From Eledone cirrhosa (taxonomy: Eukaryota): a stretch of 64,000 nt of DNA. Positions 1 through 56,800 of the stretch are shown in pieces. The first letter of the stretch is position 1. Each line of letters opens with the position of its first letter. Below the pieces are notes generated by a model, which ran no database searches, had not been told where the DNA came from, and worked only from the letters and a program-made list of their open reading frames with translations. Both the position numbers and the translations under genes were made by a program. The DNA lies in contig OZ024746.1 in NCBI GenBank assembly GCA_964016885.1, positions 868,001 through 932,000 on the forward strand, given 5' to 3'.

Positions 1-18
1 TCAGTATCTCTTTGTACA

Positions 19-46
19 GCTGACCACAGCCAGTGAGCTGAGCAGC
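19..46 (+). promoter_or_regulatory. IRE-like stem-loop A
   Basis: gctg-ac-C-acagc-CAGTGA-gctga-g-cagc; one A-A mismatch in the upper stem; enclosed by an outer stem agtatc(3-8)/gatact(53-58). Confidence 0.45.
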
Positions 47-359
47 ATCTGTGATACTTATTAATATAATTATAAATGATCTATGGGCTTTTTTTTTTAT
101 ATATGCCCTAAGGTCATTATATAATTTTATATTATTTTTCATTTTTTTTTCTCTGTGTTAAGTTAGAGTCTCAACATTTTTTGTGGGGAGAGTCAAACTT
201 GGACACAGCCATATTGATACCACTCACATTCATACTTCATATTTTCATATATTTATTGGTCCTTGTATGCTATTATTTTTATAAGTTATTTTTATTTTGT
301 ACCATCTTCCCATCTTTAATAAAGAGGGATTAGATGTCCCTTATGTATTAATGGCTATG

Positions 360-389
360 CCTGTGTCAACCAGTGTTTTGTTGAACAGG
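360..389 (+). promoter_or_regulatory. IRE-like stem-loop B
   Basis: cctgt-G-tcaac-CAGTGT(ttt)-gttga-acagg. Confidence 0.5.
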
Positions 390-589
390 AAATATCAACA
401 TTTTTATTATATTTTATACAGTTTTGTTTTCTCTGGTTTAAACAATATATTAAAATTTGTTTAGAAAATAATTTTGATGATAATACAACATTGATTCATT
501 TTTGATTATTTATTATTTGAAATCTTGTAATTAATTTAGTTGACTCAAATTTGGGATTTCATTTTTTAAAAATTTATTCTTTTTCTTGA

Positions 590-880
590 GGCTTGTGGAG
601 GCAGTCCTCAGTCACTCCTTGTAGTGGGTCCTGTCAGAAGCAACTGTTTCCAACTAATTCAGCTGGATTCCCAACACCAGCCAAGCTCATGGATGTTATC
701 CAACCATCTTGCTCGGAGTCTACCCCTGGGTCTCTTGCTGGTTGGGTTTACCTGTAAAATCTGTCCCGTGATTCTGTCCTCAGACATTCTAACCACATGT
801 CCATAGTATCGTAGTTGCAACTCTCAATTCAGAGAAGTAGCAGCTCTACCTGGAGTAACTCTCTCATCTCCCAGCTACAC
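590..880 (-). mobile_element. Old RTE-like LINE 3' fragment (related piece at about 6045-6175)
   Basis: Shared segment taaaatctgtcc...ctaaccacatg.ccatagtatc...gagaagtagc.gctctacctggagt in both places; degenerate RT C-terminus on the minus strand. Confidence 0.5.
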
Positions 881-942
881 TATTCAGTAATTGAATGAGT
901 TTTTAACATTTTAGACAAGAAAAATCTCTCAATAACTAAATA

Positions 943-1078
943 TATAGAACCCCTCTATACTATTGGAATTACCATAGAAACCCTCTATACTATTGGAATT
1001 ACCATAGAACCCCCACTATACTATTGGAATTACCATAGAACCCCCACTATACTATTGGAATTACCATAGAACCCCACT
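943..1078. repeat. 30-31 bp tandem repeat, about 4.5 copies
   Basis: atagaacccc(c)(t/a)ctatactattggaattacc. Confidence 0.9.
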
Positions 1079-1107
1079 TTATTTCAATCCACAAATGAGC
1101 TTTAATA

Positions 1108-2611
1108 TCTATATATATATAAAACTGAGGATGTCTGTCTGTGTGTGTGTGTGTGTGTGTGTGAGTTTGAATCCCTAAAACTCGAGAACCACCCAACCAA
1201 CTGTTTTCAAACTTTACACATGTAATACTTATGTTTCAGGGAGTGTTCTGAGCAAAAAAAATTTCAAATTTTCTATGCCCTAGGGACCACATTAGGCGAT
1301 TTAGCGATCTCGCTCTATAATTCTTAGTCTTTCTCTTTTTAGATAGATACATACATATAACGTTGCGCCCTTATAATATCTGTCTGTATGTCTGGCTGTC
1401 TGCATTATGTCACTTCCCACAATTCCGTCTGCGTCCAGAACGCGCCCTTATAATATGTCTGTATGTCTGGCTGTCTGCTGCCTCCGGTTATTCTACCACC
1501 CGTGCTCAAGACAAATCTCACACTCATTCCCCAAACAGTTGGTAAGTGCACACAACTTCTTCCTCACGTTTTAAGCCAGTGTTGCTTAGTTGCACACCAC
1601 CAGACCCTTACTTCTTTGCCAGCCGTGGTTGTGGCAATACTAAGCTTAGCTAAGGCAGTTATATATTTCACACAACACTAAACATTAAAGCCGGTAAAGA
1701 AAAACGCTGCAATAGCTTCAGTTTGTTTACTTACGTGCCTTGACGAGAACAAAAGTTACTATTTTACTGCTTAGTATTGTAGAGAAGCACCAAACCGACT
1801 GTTTTCAAACTTTCCACATGTAATACTTATGTTTCAGGGAGTGTTCTGAGCAAAAAAAATTTCAAATTTTCAATGCCCTAGGGACCGCATTAGGCGATTT
1901 AGCAATCTCTCTCTATAATTCTTAGTCTTTCTCTTTTTAGATAGATAATAGATACATATAACATCGCGCCCTTATAATATGTCTGAATGTCTGGATGTCT
2001 GCATTACGTCACTTCCCTGAAGATGTCTGTCTCTGAGTTTGAATCCCTAAAACTTGAGAAGTACCCAACCGATTTTTTTCAAACTTTACATGTGTATTAC
2101 TTATGTTTCAGGGAGTGTTATGCACATAAAATAATTCAACTTTTTTTTATCTCCCAGGGCCCGCATTAGGTGAAAAACTGCGTTTTTAAAGATTTTTAGG
2201 GTTTTTTTGAGGTGTTACGTCAGACTGATTTCCTTGAAATTGTAACTATGTATTAGTCAGTCTCTTCTTCATACCGTAAGCAAAGAAAATCCAACTTTCT
2301 TAGGTGAAAAACTTCATTTTTTCAGCTTCTTAGGGCTTTTTTGAGGCGTTACGTCTAGCCTATTTTCCCGAAATTTCAAGGCATATTATGCAGATAAAAA
2401 AAATTCCTTTTCTTGATCCCCTAGGGCCCGCATTAGGTGAAAACCTGCATTTTTCCTGCTTCATCGAGGAAAATCTTAAAGATTATCCAGCCATCAGAGT
2501 ATTCGGTTTATTTTCTTTATATATTGTCCAGGCATGCAGTTTTTCCATGATCTGTTGGCGGCTTGCATTCCAAAATACCTTATCCCTTGCAACGCCGGGT
2601 ACCACTGCTAG
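1108..2611 (+). mobile_element. Non-autonomous Helitron
   Basis: 5' A|TCTATATATATAAAA followed by (tctg)/(tg)n; 3' cccttgcaacgccggg hairpin remnant then CTAG|T; internal ~250-bp duplications. Confidence 0.8.
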
Positions 2612-3748
2612 TAAATAATAAAAAATACAAGCCTGATGTTTTCTGAAGAAGAAAATATTTTTTTAAAAAACTAATTCTAAGATTTGTTGCCTCTTCCTGG
2701 AACTTATTATTATTAATCACAGTTTAAAATAAAAAATAAAAAAAGATGAAAAACTGATTATTTTTACAGCATCAACAGCAATAGTAGTGATGGTAGTATC
2801 AGTAGTAGTAGTATCAGTAAAATCTATTTCAATTAGTTAATGAAGAATTTTGAGGGATTTACTAAAATTATTATTTTATTACTAAGATAGTAACTTAATG
2901 TAAGGTTCTTATATAAAATTATGTTGGAGGATTTTTATTTAAAATGTGTGATTTTATTTAATAGAACCAGAGCTGGTTTTAGCTGGGTTGGCAATAAAAG
3001 GGTAAAAAAGGGAGGAATATGGACCCTGTTCTTTGGGAACCATGGCAGTCTAATAAATTTATGACCTTTCAATAAGTTGATTCACTTGGCCAGCTCCTAA
3101 AAATAAAGTTCACTTTTCTTTTTTTAATAGTACATCTTAAGTTAATCTCATTAAAACTCCCCCAGATACTTCAGTATGAACGTTACACAATATAGACAAA
3201 AGCCTTTCTATAATTTAAAACATTTGTATAAACAGAAACGAAGAAATAATACTTTGTCACTTTTAAACTAGAACAAGTATGACCAACACTAGGAAAAAGA
3301 GGAGAAATTTGAAAAGATTTATTTGATTAATCTAACACGTGTTTCATTATGTAAACTGTTCTTTCACTATTGTTTATATATTCATTCCACACAGAAATTT
3401 ACCAACATAATTAAAAACATTTACATAGAAATAACAACAAACAATACTATGATACTTTTAAACTGGAATTATGTCATTTTGCTTGACATTTCATATTATT
3501 TCTCCTTGCTTTTTTTTAATGAAAAACAGAATCTTCCCATTATAAAATAGATGGACAGATTCTAGTTGTGAGAATTGAACCATACATCTGCCATACATAT
3601 GTGTGTGTATATACGCACACATATGCGTGTGTGTGTATAACTACCACCACCACCACTACTACTACTGTTGCTGCTGCTTTCTGTTAATGTTACTTCCTCT
3701 TAAGATCTCTATTGTATTGTTTAGAAATGTCCAGTTACCATATATGGT

Positions 3749-3781
3749 GTTCTGTCCTTAGCCAGTGATGTTAAACAGAAC
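3749..3781 (+). promoter_or_regulatory. IRE-like stem-loop C
   Basis: gttctgt-CC-ttagc-CAGTGA(t)-gttaa-acagaac. Confidence 0.6.
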
Positions 3782-5183
3782 TCACTAGCTGTCTATTTTT
3801 ATACAGTCACTAGCTGTCTATTTTATTTTCCTTTGTTATTTACAGTATTTAATGTGATATTATTCCTTTTATTTTCAGTGACTTGCAAGTCAAATATTTA
3901 CACCTTACATAATTTAGACTTTCAAATGTAGTTTGCCAAAATTGGTAAAGAAAGACCTTAAAACATTTACTAAAACACACACACAGTTATATACATACAC
4001 ACACACATATATATCATATATATATATATATATATATTTTAAAATTTGTCAGAAATATACTCTCCCTTTCACCTTCGCAGCACAACCACTGCTTTCTTTT
4101 TCCAACATGAAAATGGGAAACCAACCTGCATAAAAACTTAATATGTGATTTGGGATTTTATAGGCTAAGATAATAATAAAGAAAAAGGCAAACTAACAGC
4201 ATATGTGTTGTTTAAAATGGCCTATAATGACTGCCATGGTGCAATTGCTTTAGCCCCAATTCAGGATCTTAGAACAAATCACTTACTAAATGTGTGTAAC
4301 TCATGTATTTCTTTATTAATTCTGCTTTAGCTAAATTACTGATCATTTTCAATGAGAAATAGCAGAAAAGTTAGATTTATTCATTGTAAATCAATGAAAA
4401 TATGTGAAACAAAAACTAGTTGCTTCCTTTTGAGAACAATTAGACATGATATAGGAAGGATGATTAAAATAAATATAAGAAATATCTTATGGAGTGCTAT
4501 TAGTTTACAGTATAAGCTATCTCATGGAATATTTTGAGATAAAATTTTGATAAACTTGATGCTTAATACTAAAACTGTTTGAAAGCTTTTCATGAATTTT
4601 TATATAATTTCTGACTTGTAGTTCTTTGAATATTGAATTTCTTTTTTTTTTTTTTGTTTTCTTAATGGAAAAATGCTTATAAAATGTACCATTTGAGGGG
4701 CTGTGATAAGAAAAAACTATTGTTTTACAGTAAACTGAAGGCTTGTCTTAGTACTTCAGTATCTGCGATTGTGACATCAGAGTTTCCTTGATGTCATCAA
4801 ATTGTGGCTTTCTAGGTTGGCCTCTGTCTTTATAATAAAACATTTTTGTATTATTTACACACAATACACTGGGTTGGTTGGTTCGTTAACATTCTTCTTA
4901 CGTGTTAATTGATTTTAAAATATTCCTGTTGATGTTTTACATTAATTCAACTGTTTTTGTTTTAAATTTTGTAATATTTCATTTTAGGGAGATTATTTTA
5001 GAAATGTCTACATGTTTTTGTGAAATTTGTATCTTTGTTTTTTTACATTTTTTTAGTTAGGAAAGAATTTTGTTGGTGAATGTGTTTTAGTTTTGAATTT
5101 TTATTCTCCAACTTTCCATTTGATTTGTAACACAAAGTTTAAAAAAAAATTTCCTGTCAGGATAAATTCCTGTTTTACTATGG

Positions 5184-5216
5184 CATCGATGCGTCAACCA
5201 GTGAGTTGAGCAGATG
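5184..5216 (+). promoter_or_regulatory. IRE-like stem-loop D
   Basis: catc-ga-tgc-G-tcaac-CAGTGA-gttga-gca-gatg. Confidence 0.55.
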
Positions 5217-5652
5217 ACAATTTTCTGTTATCTTGGTAACATCTCAATCTCCAATGACCAACTATAGTTTCTTTGTATTCATAACCTACATAACCATCAT
5301 TACTAATTTACCTTAAAACGTCTTTTTTAATTACTCATTTTAACTCGTACAATTCCTTTTACATTTATTAGTGAAAAAAAAAAAAATATTAAAGAATGAC
5401 CGTATTTCCTGTTATCGAAGTCGCCTCTCCCCCTCAAGGACTTACTCCCCTCAAAAAAATAAGTTTTGTTATTAATATTTGCTTGTAAACCCTTTTAACA
5501 TAGCACAGTTTTACTTTTGTCACTTAATGTTACCTGAAAATCTGGTTGTTTGAAGAGTGACAATACCAGTAATACATGTAAATATATCACTCCTCAGTGG
5601 TCTCGTCTATCAGATTCTGCCCATACTGAGAATGAAGTTTTGGGATTGCTTT

Positions 5653-5691
<39 letters not shown>

Positions 5692-6390
5692 ATGTATGTA
5701 TATATATATATATATGTATGTATATATATATATATATATATATACATACACATATGATATTTTGTTTATTTACTACTTTAACTAATTATAATTTATAAAC
5801 TTCATTGAGAGGTCATATACAGGAGTTCAGATTACTGTCTAGCAGAGATAATTTTCCTCTGGGGTTAGGATATGCCTATGACAAACACAACCTTCGGCGT
5901 TCAGGATACACGATAGATTTTTGAGACTTATTTTAGGGAAAAAAATAGCGTCTTTGGCGCTGGGAAATATGGTCATAATTTATAACCTTAATCTATTTTG
6001 TCATAAGTTTTAATGTTCCTCTTTTATTTAGATAATACAGTTTTGCCTGTAAAATCTGTCCAGAGATTTTTCCCTGAGACAGTCTAACCACATGCCCATA
6101 GTATCAGAGCTGTAATCTCTCAATTTGGAGAAGTAGCGGCTCTACCTGGAGTGATTCTCTGATCTCCGAGCTCTATTTAGTGTATTGTTCATCACAAACA
6201 TAAATCTGTTAATATAATACAGTCACAACTTCTTGTTAGTATAGTGGTAAAAGTCCTTGTCATACACGGGACTGGGGTTCTTGTGCCACTATAAAAGTCA
6301 CTCAGAATCTCAGTTATCTTTATTTAAATTTTTAATATATTTTAAGTAAAATAAATATTGGTCATTGGATAGATTAACGCCATTATGAAC

Positions 6391-6428
6391 GGGTTTCTGT
6401 CCTCAGCCAGAGACGTTGAACAGAGCTC
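6391..6428 (+). promoter_or_regulatory. IRE-like stem-loop E
   Basis: gggtttctgt-CC-tcagc-CAGAGA(c)-gttga-acagagctc. Confidence 0.6.
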
Positions 6429-6564
6429 TTTTATTCTATCTGATTTTATTCAGAAATAAATTATAACCCACAGATATACAGAAAGAACCATATTTTTTGA
6501 TACAGAATTTTATCCAAAGCTGTTATGTATTTATTTTTTTCTTAATTTTGTTTTTACTTTAAAA

Positions 6565-6570
6565 AATAAA
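6565..6570 (+). terminator. Candidate polyA signal closing a long upstream 3'UTR
   Basis: AATAAA followed by GU/U-rich tract tgtttttgttatgtttttattg; region is very AT-rich, so the match is weak alone. Confidence 0.35.
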
Positions 6571-6611
6571 GCAATGAAAAAAAATGTTTTTGTTATGTTT
6601 TTATTGTATAA

Positions 6612-7600: not shown

Positions 7601-8656
7601 TATTATTACTAGTTATCTCAAAGTGATAAAAAAGAGATTATTTTTAAGAAGAATCTCTATCTAAAAACACTTGTCAGATTGGGGGTAATATTTCTGTGAA
7701 TTTCCAATACATTTACTGTAAATAACTGGCATTAGGAAGGACATCCAGCCATAGAAACCAAACCAGGAATAGTTCTGTATGAGGAAGACATGGTCATCTG
7801 ATCTGGCTTGTCTCTCAGAAGGACAACTCGTCCAACCCATGCTGGTTGAAAAATGGAGGTTAAATAGTGATGATGATGATATATAAAATGTGTATGTATA
7901 TGTAAATGTAGTTGGCATTAGGAAGGGCATCCAGCTGTAGAAATCAAGACATGGTCACATGGCTTCATCTAACTCATAACATTACAACTTGTCTAACCCA
8001 TACTAGCGTGGACAAATGGACGTTAAACAGTGATGGCAATGATTTATATGGAGTTGAGTTTCTTGGCTACAGTGTGGTGCCCATTAAGGGATCAAACAAA
8101 ATGCCTTGTAGTATTTGTTACATCTCTCTATGTTCTAAGTTCAAATCCCACTGAAGTCAACTTTGCCTTTTGTCTTTTGGGTTTATATAAAATAAAGTAC
8201 CAGTCATGTACTGCTCACCACAAACTTCTGGCCTTGTGCTTAAATTAGAAACAATTATAGAAATTGCAGCCTGTCTGAGGAAGGAGCCCTGTGAGGTTAA
8301 GTGGCTGGTGCAGTGGGTGTTGCCATATTGTTCATGGGGCTCGGCTGAAACGCTGCTCTGACCTAAGTGTATCGTCTGTCACCCTCCCTTCTTTTCCTCT
8401 CATGGCATTTATACTCCTTTCCAATGCTGCTTTTTTTTTCTGTATGTTTAACCAAATAAAAATAAAATATTTTCTCATTATAGAAATGTTAAAAAGGAAA
8501 GCTTTATAAAAATAATTGGTTTATTTCATAACTACAAACAATTTTCCACCAAATCTTTAACATTATTGTTACTATATTCCTAATGAAAATAATCAAGAAT
8601 TTGAAAGGATTTAGTTAAATAACTTTCTCCTTATTTATCTGGTGTAGTATAACAGG

Positions 8657-52825: not shown

Positions 52826-53778
52826 AGGATGACTGAACCATTTACCCTATTACCATTACTGAATTCAGTCATCCTACAGTAACAATGGGGTTCTTCAACC
52901 AAGTTTATTTCTCGATCTTTATAATATTCTCGGGTCCCAAATAATAGGGGAGGGGTGGAATAAGCAGAGTGGTTGGAAAGACGATAATTTTTCTAGGTTG
53001 TCTCTGTTGATTTAAAAAAAAACCCAGAATTAGTCATTTAGTTTACATATTGAGGCCCCAACCCTATTTATTTTATAACATTATTTTGTCATGTATGTTT
53101 TTTAATGTCAAAAGAAAATTGTGCCAGGAATGCTGCCACTTAAAATAAAAATTCACCAGAGATAGATTAGTAAAATTTAATAAGGGGGTGGGGGAGATTA
53201 TTGGAGATTGGAGAGTATATTGAACTTATGACATGTGTGCTGATCAAAGGTGCGATCACTATATCTGATGGAAAGGAACAATGTCAGTTAATTGACACTC
53301 TTTTTCTTGATTTGGGCGGGCGAGCGAGCATTACTGAAGAAGATGAGAGAGAAGGGGGAGTAAGTCTATGGCCCCAGAAAAGAAGACATGTGAAACTCTA
53401 ACAATTCTGCCAAGCTACCTTCCTCAACCACTATTTATTGACCCAGGAGTAGACTCCAAACAGAATGATTGGATAACATCCATGCGATGGGATGGTCTTG
53501 CTTGGGGATCCAGCCGGATCAGTTGGAGATGGTTGCTTCTGACAGGACCTGTTGGAAGGAGTGTTTGAGGACTCTAGTCCTATGACCCTGAAAGGACAAA
53601 ATGTCAAGTTGACATTGGTGGGATTTGAACTCCCAGTACAGAGGTCTGGCACAACTTCCATTTGTTGCCATAATTTTAATTACAATAAATTACAATAATA
53701 TTTAGTATTTATTTGTTTATTTTTATTATATTTTTATATAGAATTATCATTGTTCCAGTAATAACTAATTTTCTGAAA

Positions 53779-53880
53779 ATGGCTAAAGGTACCTTGGCTG
53801 CTATGTTGATAGCTTGCATGGTTTTAATGGCATATGCCACCCCAGTGAAACAGGCCCGAGCTGTGAAAGCCATAAAACAA
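53779..53880 (+). CDS. EF-hand protein coding exon 1 (signal peptide)
   Basis: aaaATGG start context; donor CAA|gtaagt; AT-rich acceptor candidates at about 53741 and 53757. Confidence 0.85.
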
Positions 53881-56800
53881 GTAAGTACTGAAGTTGTATT
53901 ACAATCATACACTCTATCACCCCTTGGATATAGTCCAGACTCTCTCTATTTCCAGGCCAATGACAGACATAATATATGCCAAACTCTCTCTATTTCCAGA
54001 TCAATGACAGACATGATATATGCCAGAGTCTCTCGATTTCCAGACCAATGACAGACATGATATATGCCAGACTCTCTCTATTTCCAGACCAATGACAGAC
54101 ATGATATAGTCCAGACTCTCTCTATTTCCAGACCAATGACAGACATAATATATGCCAGAGTCTCTCGATTTCCAGACCAATGACAGACATGATATAGTCC
54201 AGACTCTCTCTATTTCCAGACCAATGACAGACATAATATATGCCAGACTCTCTCTATTTCCAGGCCAATGACAGACATAATATATGCCAGACACTCCCTA
54301 TTTCCAGACCAATGACAGACATGATATAATCCAGACTCTCTCTATTTCCAGACCAATGACAGACATGATATAGTCCAGACTCTCTCTATTTCCAGACCAA
54401 TGACAGACATGATATAGTCCAGACTCTCTCTATTTCCAGACCAATGACAGACATGATATATGCCAGACTTTCTCTATTTCCAGACCAATGACAGACATGA
54501 TATAGACCAGACTCTCTATTTCCAGGCCAATGACAGACATGATATACTCCAGACATGATATAGTCCAGACTCTCTCTATTTCCAGACCAATGACAGACAT
54601 GATATAGGTCAGACTCTCTATTTCCAGACCAATGAGATGCTCTGGTTGATTCTCTGCTGATTTGATCTCAGAAACTATGAAGTGGAGATTATTAAATAAT
54701 GTAGAAGATAACTTTCATTGAGTTGTTGACTGTAGAGAGTAACAAGACACTCACACTCCACAACAAGACACTCGCTCCACATAACAAGACACTCACACTC
54801 CACATAACAAGACACTCCCACTCCACAAGACACTCCCACTCCACAACAAGACACTCACACTCCCACTCCACAAGACACTCCCACTCCACAACAAGACACT
54901 CACACTCCACAACAAGACACTCACACTCTACATAACAAGACACTCACACTCTACATAACAAGATACTCACACTCCACAACAAGGCACTCACACTCCACAA
55001 CAAGACACTCACACTCCACAACAAGACACTCACACTCCACAACAAGACACTCACACTTCACAACAAGACACTCACAGTCCACATAACAAGACACTCCCAC
55101 TCCACATAACAAGACACTCCCACTCCACATAACAAGACACTCACACTCCACATAACAAGACACTCACACTCCACAGCCAACACTCCACATAACCAGACAC
55201 TCTAACAGCTATTCTCTATATTCCAGTTACAGGCTGTTGCCAAGAAGAATACAGCTAACAGCGTCAAGTTTATCCTTAATCTTTTTGATGAAAATAAAAA
55301 TGGAGGTCTTGAAGAAACAGAACTGGCCACTATGCTTGGGGCTATTGGTAATATAGAACCTGAAGATGCCCTAACATACGCTTCTATGGCGATGTTAATG
55401 GACGCGAATGAAAATGGCAAATTGGATGAAAATGGTACAGTATAAGAAACCAATTTTTTAAAGTACATATGTGTGTGCTTGTATGTGTGTGTGTGTATGT
55501 GTGTGTGTGTGCTTGTATGTATGTATATTTAACCATCTTTAACAACAACCCTGAGCACACTTTTGATTTCCATGTGTATAACTCCTGCGGACATGCTTAC
55601 AAAATCAGAAAACAGCAGCTCCGATGACTTTCAGAAACATTTTTTCGCGCTCAGAGTTGTTGAAGCATTGAACAAACTGCCTGCATCAGTTGTTAGCTGC
55701 TGGGACACTGCATCCTTCAAAACTTCCATGCTTCCTGAGATTCGCCAACAGTATACATGATATTTCTCCTCCATATATACACACACACGTGTGTGTATAT
55801 GTATGTGTGTATATCATGACTCATACACTGTTCACTTACCTGACATTTGTACATTAATCCATGTACTATACATGCACCTTTGATGAGTTGTAGTGCACCT
55901 AAGCACTGTACGTAATAATCATCATCATACGTCTTTTTTTACCTGATTGCAAGGGTAGGATGGGTCCTCTTCAGCACAGCATGTGTATTTTTGGTTAAGA
56001 GGTGCCTACTGACTGTAGGTTTTGCTTTGTACTTAGGCAAGGCGGGTCTTCTGTATTACTGCGTAGCGCCAAAGATCTCAGTCCAGTGACATTGTCTTGG
56101 AGAGGTGTAAGTGTGTGAGGTCGGAATTTGTCAAATCATCCCAGGTTTTTTTGGGTCTGCCTACTCCGTAGCTACCGTCTATTTTCATCGCCCTGCATTT
56201 TTTTATACAGCTGTCGTCTTTCATGCGCATCACGTGACCAAACCAACGTAGTCCCTCTTATTCTTTATTTCTCACTTAGTTCATTTATGCTTTGCCATTC
56301 ACGTATATTACTATTACACATCTGCACAGATCCTCTGCACACAATGCCCATGTAACATTACTGTTCGTATGCAGGCATCATACAGTCTGCCTTTCATTTT
56401 TAGAGAGAAACCTTTAGCGGCCAATAGTGGTATAAGCTCTCTAAACTTTTTCCATCCCGTTCTGACTCTAGCAACTGTATTTTCAGAGCACCCTCCACCA
56501 CTGCTGATTTTGTCACCCAGGTAACGGAAGGTGTCCACTATTTCTATAGAACCATCTGGGCAATGGAAGGAGCTAGTATTCTGTGGGCACTTGCTGCTAC
56601 TTATTGCACCTGAGCACCAGCCACATATAAAATCTATGTTCTTAGTTAGCTTACCTGTGATCCCACTACATCTTTTATGCACCCATACTTTGTATTTGGG
56701 ACATAAAATGGAGTTTCTGCCTACTCCTTTCCTTCACACTGAGCATGGCCATTTCCCAGAGGGGACCAGTGCCCTATTTTCCTTCCTACATACTAGAACT

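Follow-up and report, generated by a model that had tools for sequence, protein, structure and literature searches.

Five stem-loops resembling iron-responsive elements (IREs) were found on the plus strand, over the first 6.4 kb of a 64,000-nt window of Eledone cirrhosa DNA (G000:C6:868001-932000, in a genome of 3.0 Gb), ~4-10 kb 3′ of the stop codon of a gene for a PXYLP1-like protein. The hairpins are real, occur far above chance and are specific to this locus. They likely constitute a selected, repeated RNA element made up of protein-binding sites, and all five probably belong to a single mRNA, lying in a ~10-kb 3′ untranslated region (3′UTR) of the PXYLP1-like gene. Judged from their layout, IRP1 would be the best single candidate for the protein that reads the array, and a probability of roughly 40% is given to this reading. 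Positions are those of the window unless a genome coordinate is given, and the features are collected in table 1.

Table 1. Hairpins and associated features of the array locus.
Feature	Position	Strand	Description
Hairpin 1	19..46	+	C bulge; upper stem with 4 bp and one A.A mismatch; loop CAGUGA
Hairpin 2	360..389	+	G bulge; 5-bp upper stem; 9-nt loop CAGUGUUUU; 5-bp lower stem
Hairpin 3	3749..3781	+	CC bulge; 5-bp upper stem including one G-U; 7-nt loop CAGUGAU; 7-bp lower stem
Hairpin 4	5184..5216	+	G bulge; upper stem of 5 bp, fully paired; loop CAGUGA; arranged as in G8-type invertebrate IREs
Hairpin 5	6391..6428	+	CC bulge; upper stem of 5 bp, one of them G-U; 7-nt loop CAGAGAC; lower stem that can be extended
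High-copy repeat insertions	~580-890 and ~1100-2620 (580..2620)		between hairpins 2 and 3; outside the element
AATAAA, candidate distal poly(A) signal	6565..6570	+	last before a fragment of a long interspersed nuclear element (LINE); LINE-like open reading frame from 6612
Predicted distal 3′UTR of the PXYLP1-like gene	1..6590	+	from the gene upstream and the junction in the Octopus vulgaris model
PXYLP1-like gene, coding exons	~G000:C6:856222-856325, 862143-862334, 862987-864173	+	from open reading frame, Pfam and homology

Architecture, rarity and covariation of the hairpins

The IRE-like shape described in the initial annotation, with a lower stem, a 5′ bulge, an upper stem and a CAGWG loop, was recovered at all five positions and on the same strand; the common five-pair upper stem was not, hairpin 1 having four pairs and a mismatch. 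About one third of window 1-6600 is high-copy repeat, placed between the hairpins, and the flanks of the five copies are fully diverged, with the cores retained. Most likely, the array originated by local duplication of a single element, after which the flanks would have diverged and received the repeats and the cores would have been kept as protein-binding hairpins in a distal 3′UTR.

Rarity was assessed using a strict scan rule (CAGWG loop, five of five upper-stem positions paired and no fewer than three lower pairs), which gave four matches in window 1-6600, compared with 0.047 on average and never more than 2 when the sequence was dinucleotide-shuffled 1000 times. A looser rule without a fixed stem sequence, defined post hoc, recovered all five hairpins together with one overlapping spurious match at 6421. 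In background DNA this rule gave six matches in 995 kb (both strands), one being a real ferritin IRE, so that 0.04 are expected per 6.6 kb; it picked up one of the two ferritin IREs of the genome. The concern, raised with the first description, that shuffled or background DNA might carry such hairpins at similar density was thereby removed, the array standing far above both.

Genome-wide, the consensus YARCCAGWGN{1,4}GYTRARCAG was matched nine times and its reversed-pattern control 46 times. Since five of the nine consensus matches are the array hairpins, the array is locus-specific and not a transposon family, as had already been proposed from the window; the many dispersed copies expected of a transposable-element family were not found. 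The four other consensus matches were taken as chance: two of them have nearly the same sequence, another is an AT-rich unit duplicated locally and the fourth lies on C3. The C3 match (L024, G000:C3:149715454, minus strand) is solitary and resembles hairpin 1 with a partial lower stem, and no second copy was found within 20 kb on either side. No sixth copy was detected by a relaxed consensus from 12 kb upstream through the window end. Two looser upper-stem patterns gave 25 and 50 matches, and among the 55 of these 75 that were inspected the RCAG lower stem was present only in three array members and in none of the other 52. Separately, a 32-nt tandem array at G000:C22:23976670-23977152, probably a minisatellite, carries a 5-bp stem and a CAGTGY loop in each unit (11 matches).

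Pairing was scored over ten stem positions in the five copies and is present in 46 of 50 cells (P = 0.005 by exact permutation). Double-sided changes were present at U2 (C-G/U-A) and U4 (A-U/G-U/G-C), the two pairs for which compensatory variation had been claimed, and also at L1 and L5. For the upper stem alone, 59 of 500 shuffles paired as well as the observed sequences. Given this share of shuffles, the manual choice of the pairing register and the lack of independence among paralogous copies, the covariation is modest evidence; selection on the fold is held to be probable.

The argument of the initial annotation that the G-U pairs work on the plus strand only turned out to be weak, as 46 cells pair on the plus strand versus 44 of 50 on the minus strand, and three of the five isolated hairpins have a lower minimum free energy on the minus strand. 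This small strand bias, in a region whose transcription is a prediction, would suit an inverted-repeat motif read at the DNA level (an enhancer or another site of protein-DNA contact), or the drifting remains of a local duplication long past, in either case without RNA function. Such an origin is nevertheless quite unlikely given the double-sided changes with G-U intermediates at four pairs and the retention of cores between fully diverged flanks. Furthermore, hairpin 1 is more conserved than coding sequence (see below), and neutral drift is therefore excluded for that copy.

The PXYLP1-like gene and its predicted 3′UTR

The upstream plus-strand gene predicted earlier was found as a 397-codon open frame with its stop 3.8 kb before window base 1. 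Two further upstream coding exons, including a hydrophobic N-terminus, join it in frame by eye. The product of the large exon matches PF00328 (histidine phosphatase branch 2; 5.6e-07), and the protein is 70% identical to O. vulgaris CAI9724621.1, named 2-phosphoxylose phosphatase 1; further orthologs are XP_052824878.1 of O. bimaculoides and XP_036359722.1 of O. sinensis. The O. vulgaris ortholog shares 25% identity with the intact PXYLP1 of the Eledone genome. Active histidine acid phosphatases have RHGxRxP and HD motifs; in the PXYLP1-like protein RHGDR is changed to SPGQT and GHD is lost, and a paralog at C6:87.9 Mb retains both catalytic motifs. From the PXYLP1 homology and the lost motifs it follows that the gene is not an iron transporter, and the suggestion that it might serve metal or iron uptake was dropped.

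A quick tree of 59 rows was built from 53 of 150 listed matches, with support from the Shimodaira-Hasegawa-like approximate likelihood ratio test (SH-aLRT) only. In it, 28 rows form one clade (SH-aLRT 99) with neither motif in any of the 28, five of which lack or only partly cover the first motif region; named members are Octopus, Haliotis, Patella, Mya, Mercenaria, Mactra and Potamilus. The Eledone protein resembles PXYLP1/ACPL2 in its Pfam match and N-terminal hydrophobic segment, and differs in the two altered motifs and in its separate clade of 28 of 59 rows. Judged by motif loss across the alignment, the clade is likely a conserved pseudoenzyme. Motif-less PXYLP1 paralogs of this kind (L003:4986-6173; homologs P0001-P0003 and P0008-P0045) occur across molluscs, the named members including cephalopods, gastropods and bivalves, and are still annotated as phosphatases. 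A metagenome scan returned a single locus (L038), an intact-motif PXYLP1 that is not an ortholog, with no SIREs-style match in its ~790 nt of 3′ flank. An AlphaFold model made from a three-sequence alignment was unusable (predicted local distance difference test score 32).

No other host gene was found by Pfam searches of 150 of 202 plus-strand open reading frames of at least 42 aa in unique DNA, apart from RRM exons 70-80 kb upstream; short exons would escape such a search. The RRM exons (RRM_8/RRM_5, plus strand; L011:6467-6766 and L010:5399-7652, G000:C6:784-796 kb) belong to an hnRNP L/PTB-like gene and are followed by ~15 kb of largely unique DNA, maybe a long 3′UTR. At the 5′ end of the PXYLP1-like gene, a 17-codon Cys-rich upstream open reading frame (L004 ~8225-8278, G000:C6 ~856225) lies out of frame over the likely start codon, with three Cys in the first five residues after Met-Tyr and four in total. 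A second short ATG-initiated frame is present in the candidate first exon near L004:4570-4650.

The array was linked to this gene through a second O. vulgaris model, CAI9724620.1 (P0004), which tracks the gene to NNPK and then continues for 23 terminal residues. The first 22 of these are identical at 20 of 22 positions to the translation of G000:C6:867993-868058 (tblastn), compared with 70% for the real protein, and the matched 66-nt block corresponds to window -7 to 58 and covers hairpin 1. In Eledone the block is preceded by AA, not AG, at the exon start, and the genome has GT where P0004 leaves the large exon; no second protein with the P0004 junction was found. As the block is better conserved than the protein and has no AG acceptor here, it was read as conserved non-coding sequence, reached in P0004 by a rare or mispredicted splice. 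By joining coding exons to the block, P0004 places hairpin 1 behind this gene, with the strand unchanged, in O. vulgaris as well. On these alignments, hairpin 1 is conserved in O. vulgaris and tied to the PXYLP1-like gene.

The same junction could mean that the hairpins steer splicing or the choice of 3′ end, for instance through the hiding of AG acceptors, which would promote or prevent a truncated P0004-like isoform. P0004 indeed exits the large exon at NNPK and enters just before hairpin 1, CAG occurs in the loop and 3′ arm of every hairpin, and the 5′ arms of hairpins 3 and 5 are rich in pyrimidines. This role is very unlikely in view of the missing acceptor and the single protein with this junction, and because no joint was seen in window 1-701 of the contig described below. 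The loops also do not contain the UACAGAG of METTL16 substrates.

The conserved block is likewise of a size expected for a precursor (66 nt) and folds as one long hairpin, which would suit a cluster of genes or precursors of small non-coding RNAs, microRNA-like or other, or a separate non-coding transcript after the gene. Five paralogs in unique DNA with repeat insertions between them, and 3′ arms conserved above the 5′ arms, agree with such a cluster. Against it, the stable 55-70-nt hairpin with a conserved seed-bearing arm that marks a microRNA precursor was not seen: folds of 76-81 nt are weak (-12 to -20 kcal/mol) and unlike between copies, no candidate seed is as well conserved as the loop and none is common to the copies. 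Furthermore, no Rfam family was matched at threshold, and no C/D or H/ACA box layout common to the copies was seen by eye. The arm strings were not found in the searched supplements of PMC9699675 (two of three files) or PMC11701709, which may not list microRNA sequences. Small RNA genes are therefore considered unlikely.

For the extent of the transcript, one 879-nt contig of run X3 spans window 1-701, with hairpins 1 and 2, without a joint; it carries no strand information. The X3 assembly comprises 88 million letters and its repeat-to-unique depth ratio is ~50-fold below that of X1, from which X3 may be guessed to be an RNA library. Long 3′UTRs are reported as a feature of the octopus transcriptome in the accessible part of PMC9699675, which was counted in favour of a 10-kb UTR. 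The polyA-like site noted at 6565 is an AATAAA, though it closes a series of 29 AATAAA/ATTAAA hexamers that begins behind the stop codon; the 28 that precede it, two of them within 40 nt of the stop, speak against a UTR of this length. The comparison with the second species is likewise a weak point of the proposal, as it covers hairpin 1 only and runs through a translated gene model.

IRP1 and other candidate readers of the array

The hairpins were compared with the IRE feature set of PMC8466369 (Volz 2021), namely a C14-G18 pair, AGU at 15-17, a hexaloop, C8 or G8 and a five-pair helix. The C14-G18 cross-loop pair is present in all five (CAGWG, the loop varying only at U/A), and the AGU triplet in four of five, hairpin 5 having AGA. 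The five-pair upper helix is complete in four, and the one mismatch of hairpin 1 is allowed by SIREs. Position 8 is C in hairpins 1, 3 and 5 and G in hairpins 2 and 4; G8 is a natural variant in annelids, brachiopods and arthropods (PMC8466369), and a crayfish IRE with a G bulge binds IRP1 in vitro according to the accessible part of PMC4184891. N19 is never G in the five and is A in hairpins 1 and 4, as in 16% of classic IREs (PMC8466369). IRP1 was favoured because the geometry from bulge to loop is exact in five of five hairpins and position 8 takes only the two natural IRE bases.

The core rule of SIREs was re-implemented from the available part of PMC2896125 with C8 or G8 allowed, the loop of its G8 motif being given in a figure outside that part. 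Applied to both strands of the window, this rule returned only hairpin 1 (motif 1, with one mismatch) and hairpin 4 (if G8 with CAGUGA is allowed). Rfam models IRE_I and IRE_II gave no match on the hairpins, and the canonical ferritin IRE used as a control was also missed, so that the Rfam silence is uninformative; at E values up to 10 neither ferritin IRE of the genome was detected.

The control by iron regulatory proteins proposed in the initial annotation would find its partners in this genome, where both an IRP1 gene and canonical IREs are present. The IRP1/ACO1 gene keeps nine of nine checked RNA-contact residues (R269, S371, K379, S681, P682, R713, R780, D781 and W782). Two neighbouring ferritin genes (L049:6882 and L046:6019; G000:C20) each have a 5′UTR C8 IRE just after the TATA box (~30 nt), and that of L046 has a G.A mismatch in the upper stem next to the loop, comparable to the mismatch of hairpin 1. 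Separately, an intronless ferritin-like gene was noted at L039 (G000:C11:42354473-42354889, minus strand), with no SIREs-style IRE found upstream.

Several findings weigh against IRP1 as the reader. A six-nucleotide loop is present only in hairpins 1 and 4, hairpins 2, 3 and 5 having loops of 9, 7 and 7 nt that fail the SIREs-style rule; hairpins 3 and 5 have CC bulges; the AGA triplet of hairpin 5 is of a kind argued to be non-functional (PMC8466369); and hairpin 1 has G at n25, which SIREs flags for possible pairing with C8 (PMC2896125, available part). The same rule gives eight other matches in 200 kb upstream, and the ferritin IREs of Eledone use C8, not G8. No role in iron is known for the PXYLP1-like gene, and a comparable array is absent from the 28 kb downstream of the intact paralog. 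All three mismatches among nine core pairs arise from changes in the 5′ strand, the 3′ strand GYURARCAG being fixed; this constancy opposite a varying 5′ strand suggests a read-out of sequence, for which a need in IRP1 is not known. A metagenome scan returned a single locus (L038), an intact-motif PXYLP1 that is not an ortholog, with no SIREs-style match in its ~790 nt of 3′ flank.

The fixed 3′ strand would be explained by another RNA-binding protein reading the same selected element in the same 3′UTR, through the CAGWG loop and the GYURARCAG strand, for iron-independent decay, localisation or translation control. We hold this nearly as likely as IRP1. Pairing alone would not require the 3′ strand to be as constant as it is, no classic IRE shows such a spread of loop length (6-9 nt) and bulge (C, G, CC), the gene is unrelated to iron, and the conservation of hairpin 1 extends over 66 nt, well past an IRE core. 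On the other side, the exact spacing of five positions from the C or G bulge to CAGWG is the geometry bound by IRPs (PMC8466369). No other binder of a CAGWG loop was found in the open-access literature. To our knowledge, no such protein has been described.

In layout the array would work like an IRE array; its hairpins were not filed as IREs because the loop-length feature fails in three copies, and membership of the class is not assigned. If IRP1 is the reader, its binding at the repeated hairpins would tie the stability or translation of the PXYLP1-like mRNA to iron, as with the five IREs of TFRC, and by that analogy the mRNA would become more stable when iron is low. IRP1 would be expected to bind best at hairpins 4 and 1, and its binding to hairpins 2, 3 and 5 would require that additional nucleotides be tolerated at the extruded N19. 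On the effect of deleting N19, PMC8466369 and the accessible part of a yeast three-hybrid preprint (10.1101/524991) disagree, and insertions at this position are examined in neither text. In its fullest form, the proposal would be that cephalopods independently evolved a TFRC-style five-IRE 3′UTR, relaxed to G8 and CC bulges and an expanded N19, on a mollusc-specific dead PXYLP1 paralog, and that IRP1 couples iron to proteoglycan synthesis via the pseudoenzyme; this is put forward tentatively and may well prove wrong.

Relation to known systems and neighbouring observations

The array is like the vertebrate TFRC 3′UTR with its IREs A-E in that five related hairpins lie 3′ of the stop codon, each with a CAGWG loop and, five positions beneath it, a bulge. 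The TFRC IREs span a few hundred bases; unlike them, the Eledone hairpins are spread over 6.4 kb with repeats, have 6-9-nt loops and C, G or CC bulges, follow a non-iron gene and are known from sequence alone. The 3′UTR of MAT2A likewise carries several paralogous hairpins, read by METTL16, whose loops need UACAGAG. The two have in common paralogous hairpins with conserved loops in one 3′UTR (a predicted one in Eledone) of a metabolic gene, and differ in the bases before CAG, which are RC in all five Eledone copies. In AGA, hairpin 5 matches TFRC IRE A (PMC8466369). Among invertebrate ferritin IREs, the bulge layout of hairpin 1 is that of the genome's own ferritin IRE and hairpin 4 has the G8 layout of crayfish, shrimp and annelid; unlike the array, the ferritin IREs of this genome are single, placed ~30 nt after the TATA box, and have the stem UGCGU/ACGUA and a strict hexaloop.

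No description of the element, of PXYLP1 UTR structure or of an invertebrate multi-IRE 3′UTR was found in the open-access literature; a chiton IRE survey predicts many molluscan 3′ IREs (PMC7850002, accessible part). If IRP1 binds, the locus would be a multi-IRE 3′UTR outside vertebrates, a natural test set for the flexibility of IRE rules (one mRNA with G8, CC bulge and 7-9-nt loops) and a first connection between iron sensing and the chemistry of the glycosaminoglycan linker. If it does not, the array would still be an apparently undescribed conserved repeated RNA element, with five natural variants for pull-down of its reader. Either way, a handle is provided on an uncharacterised mollusc-wide pseudophosphatase.

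Elsewhere in the window, an open reading frame at 53689-54048 (plus strand) begins in the manner of a signal peptide and continues with a short basic segment, and is possibly an exon of a secreted-peptide gene.

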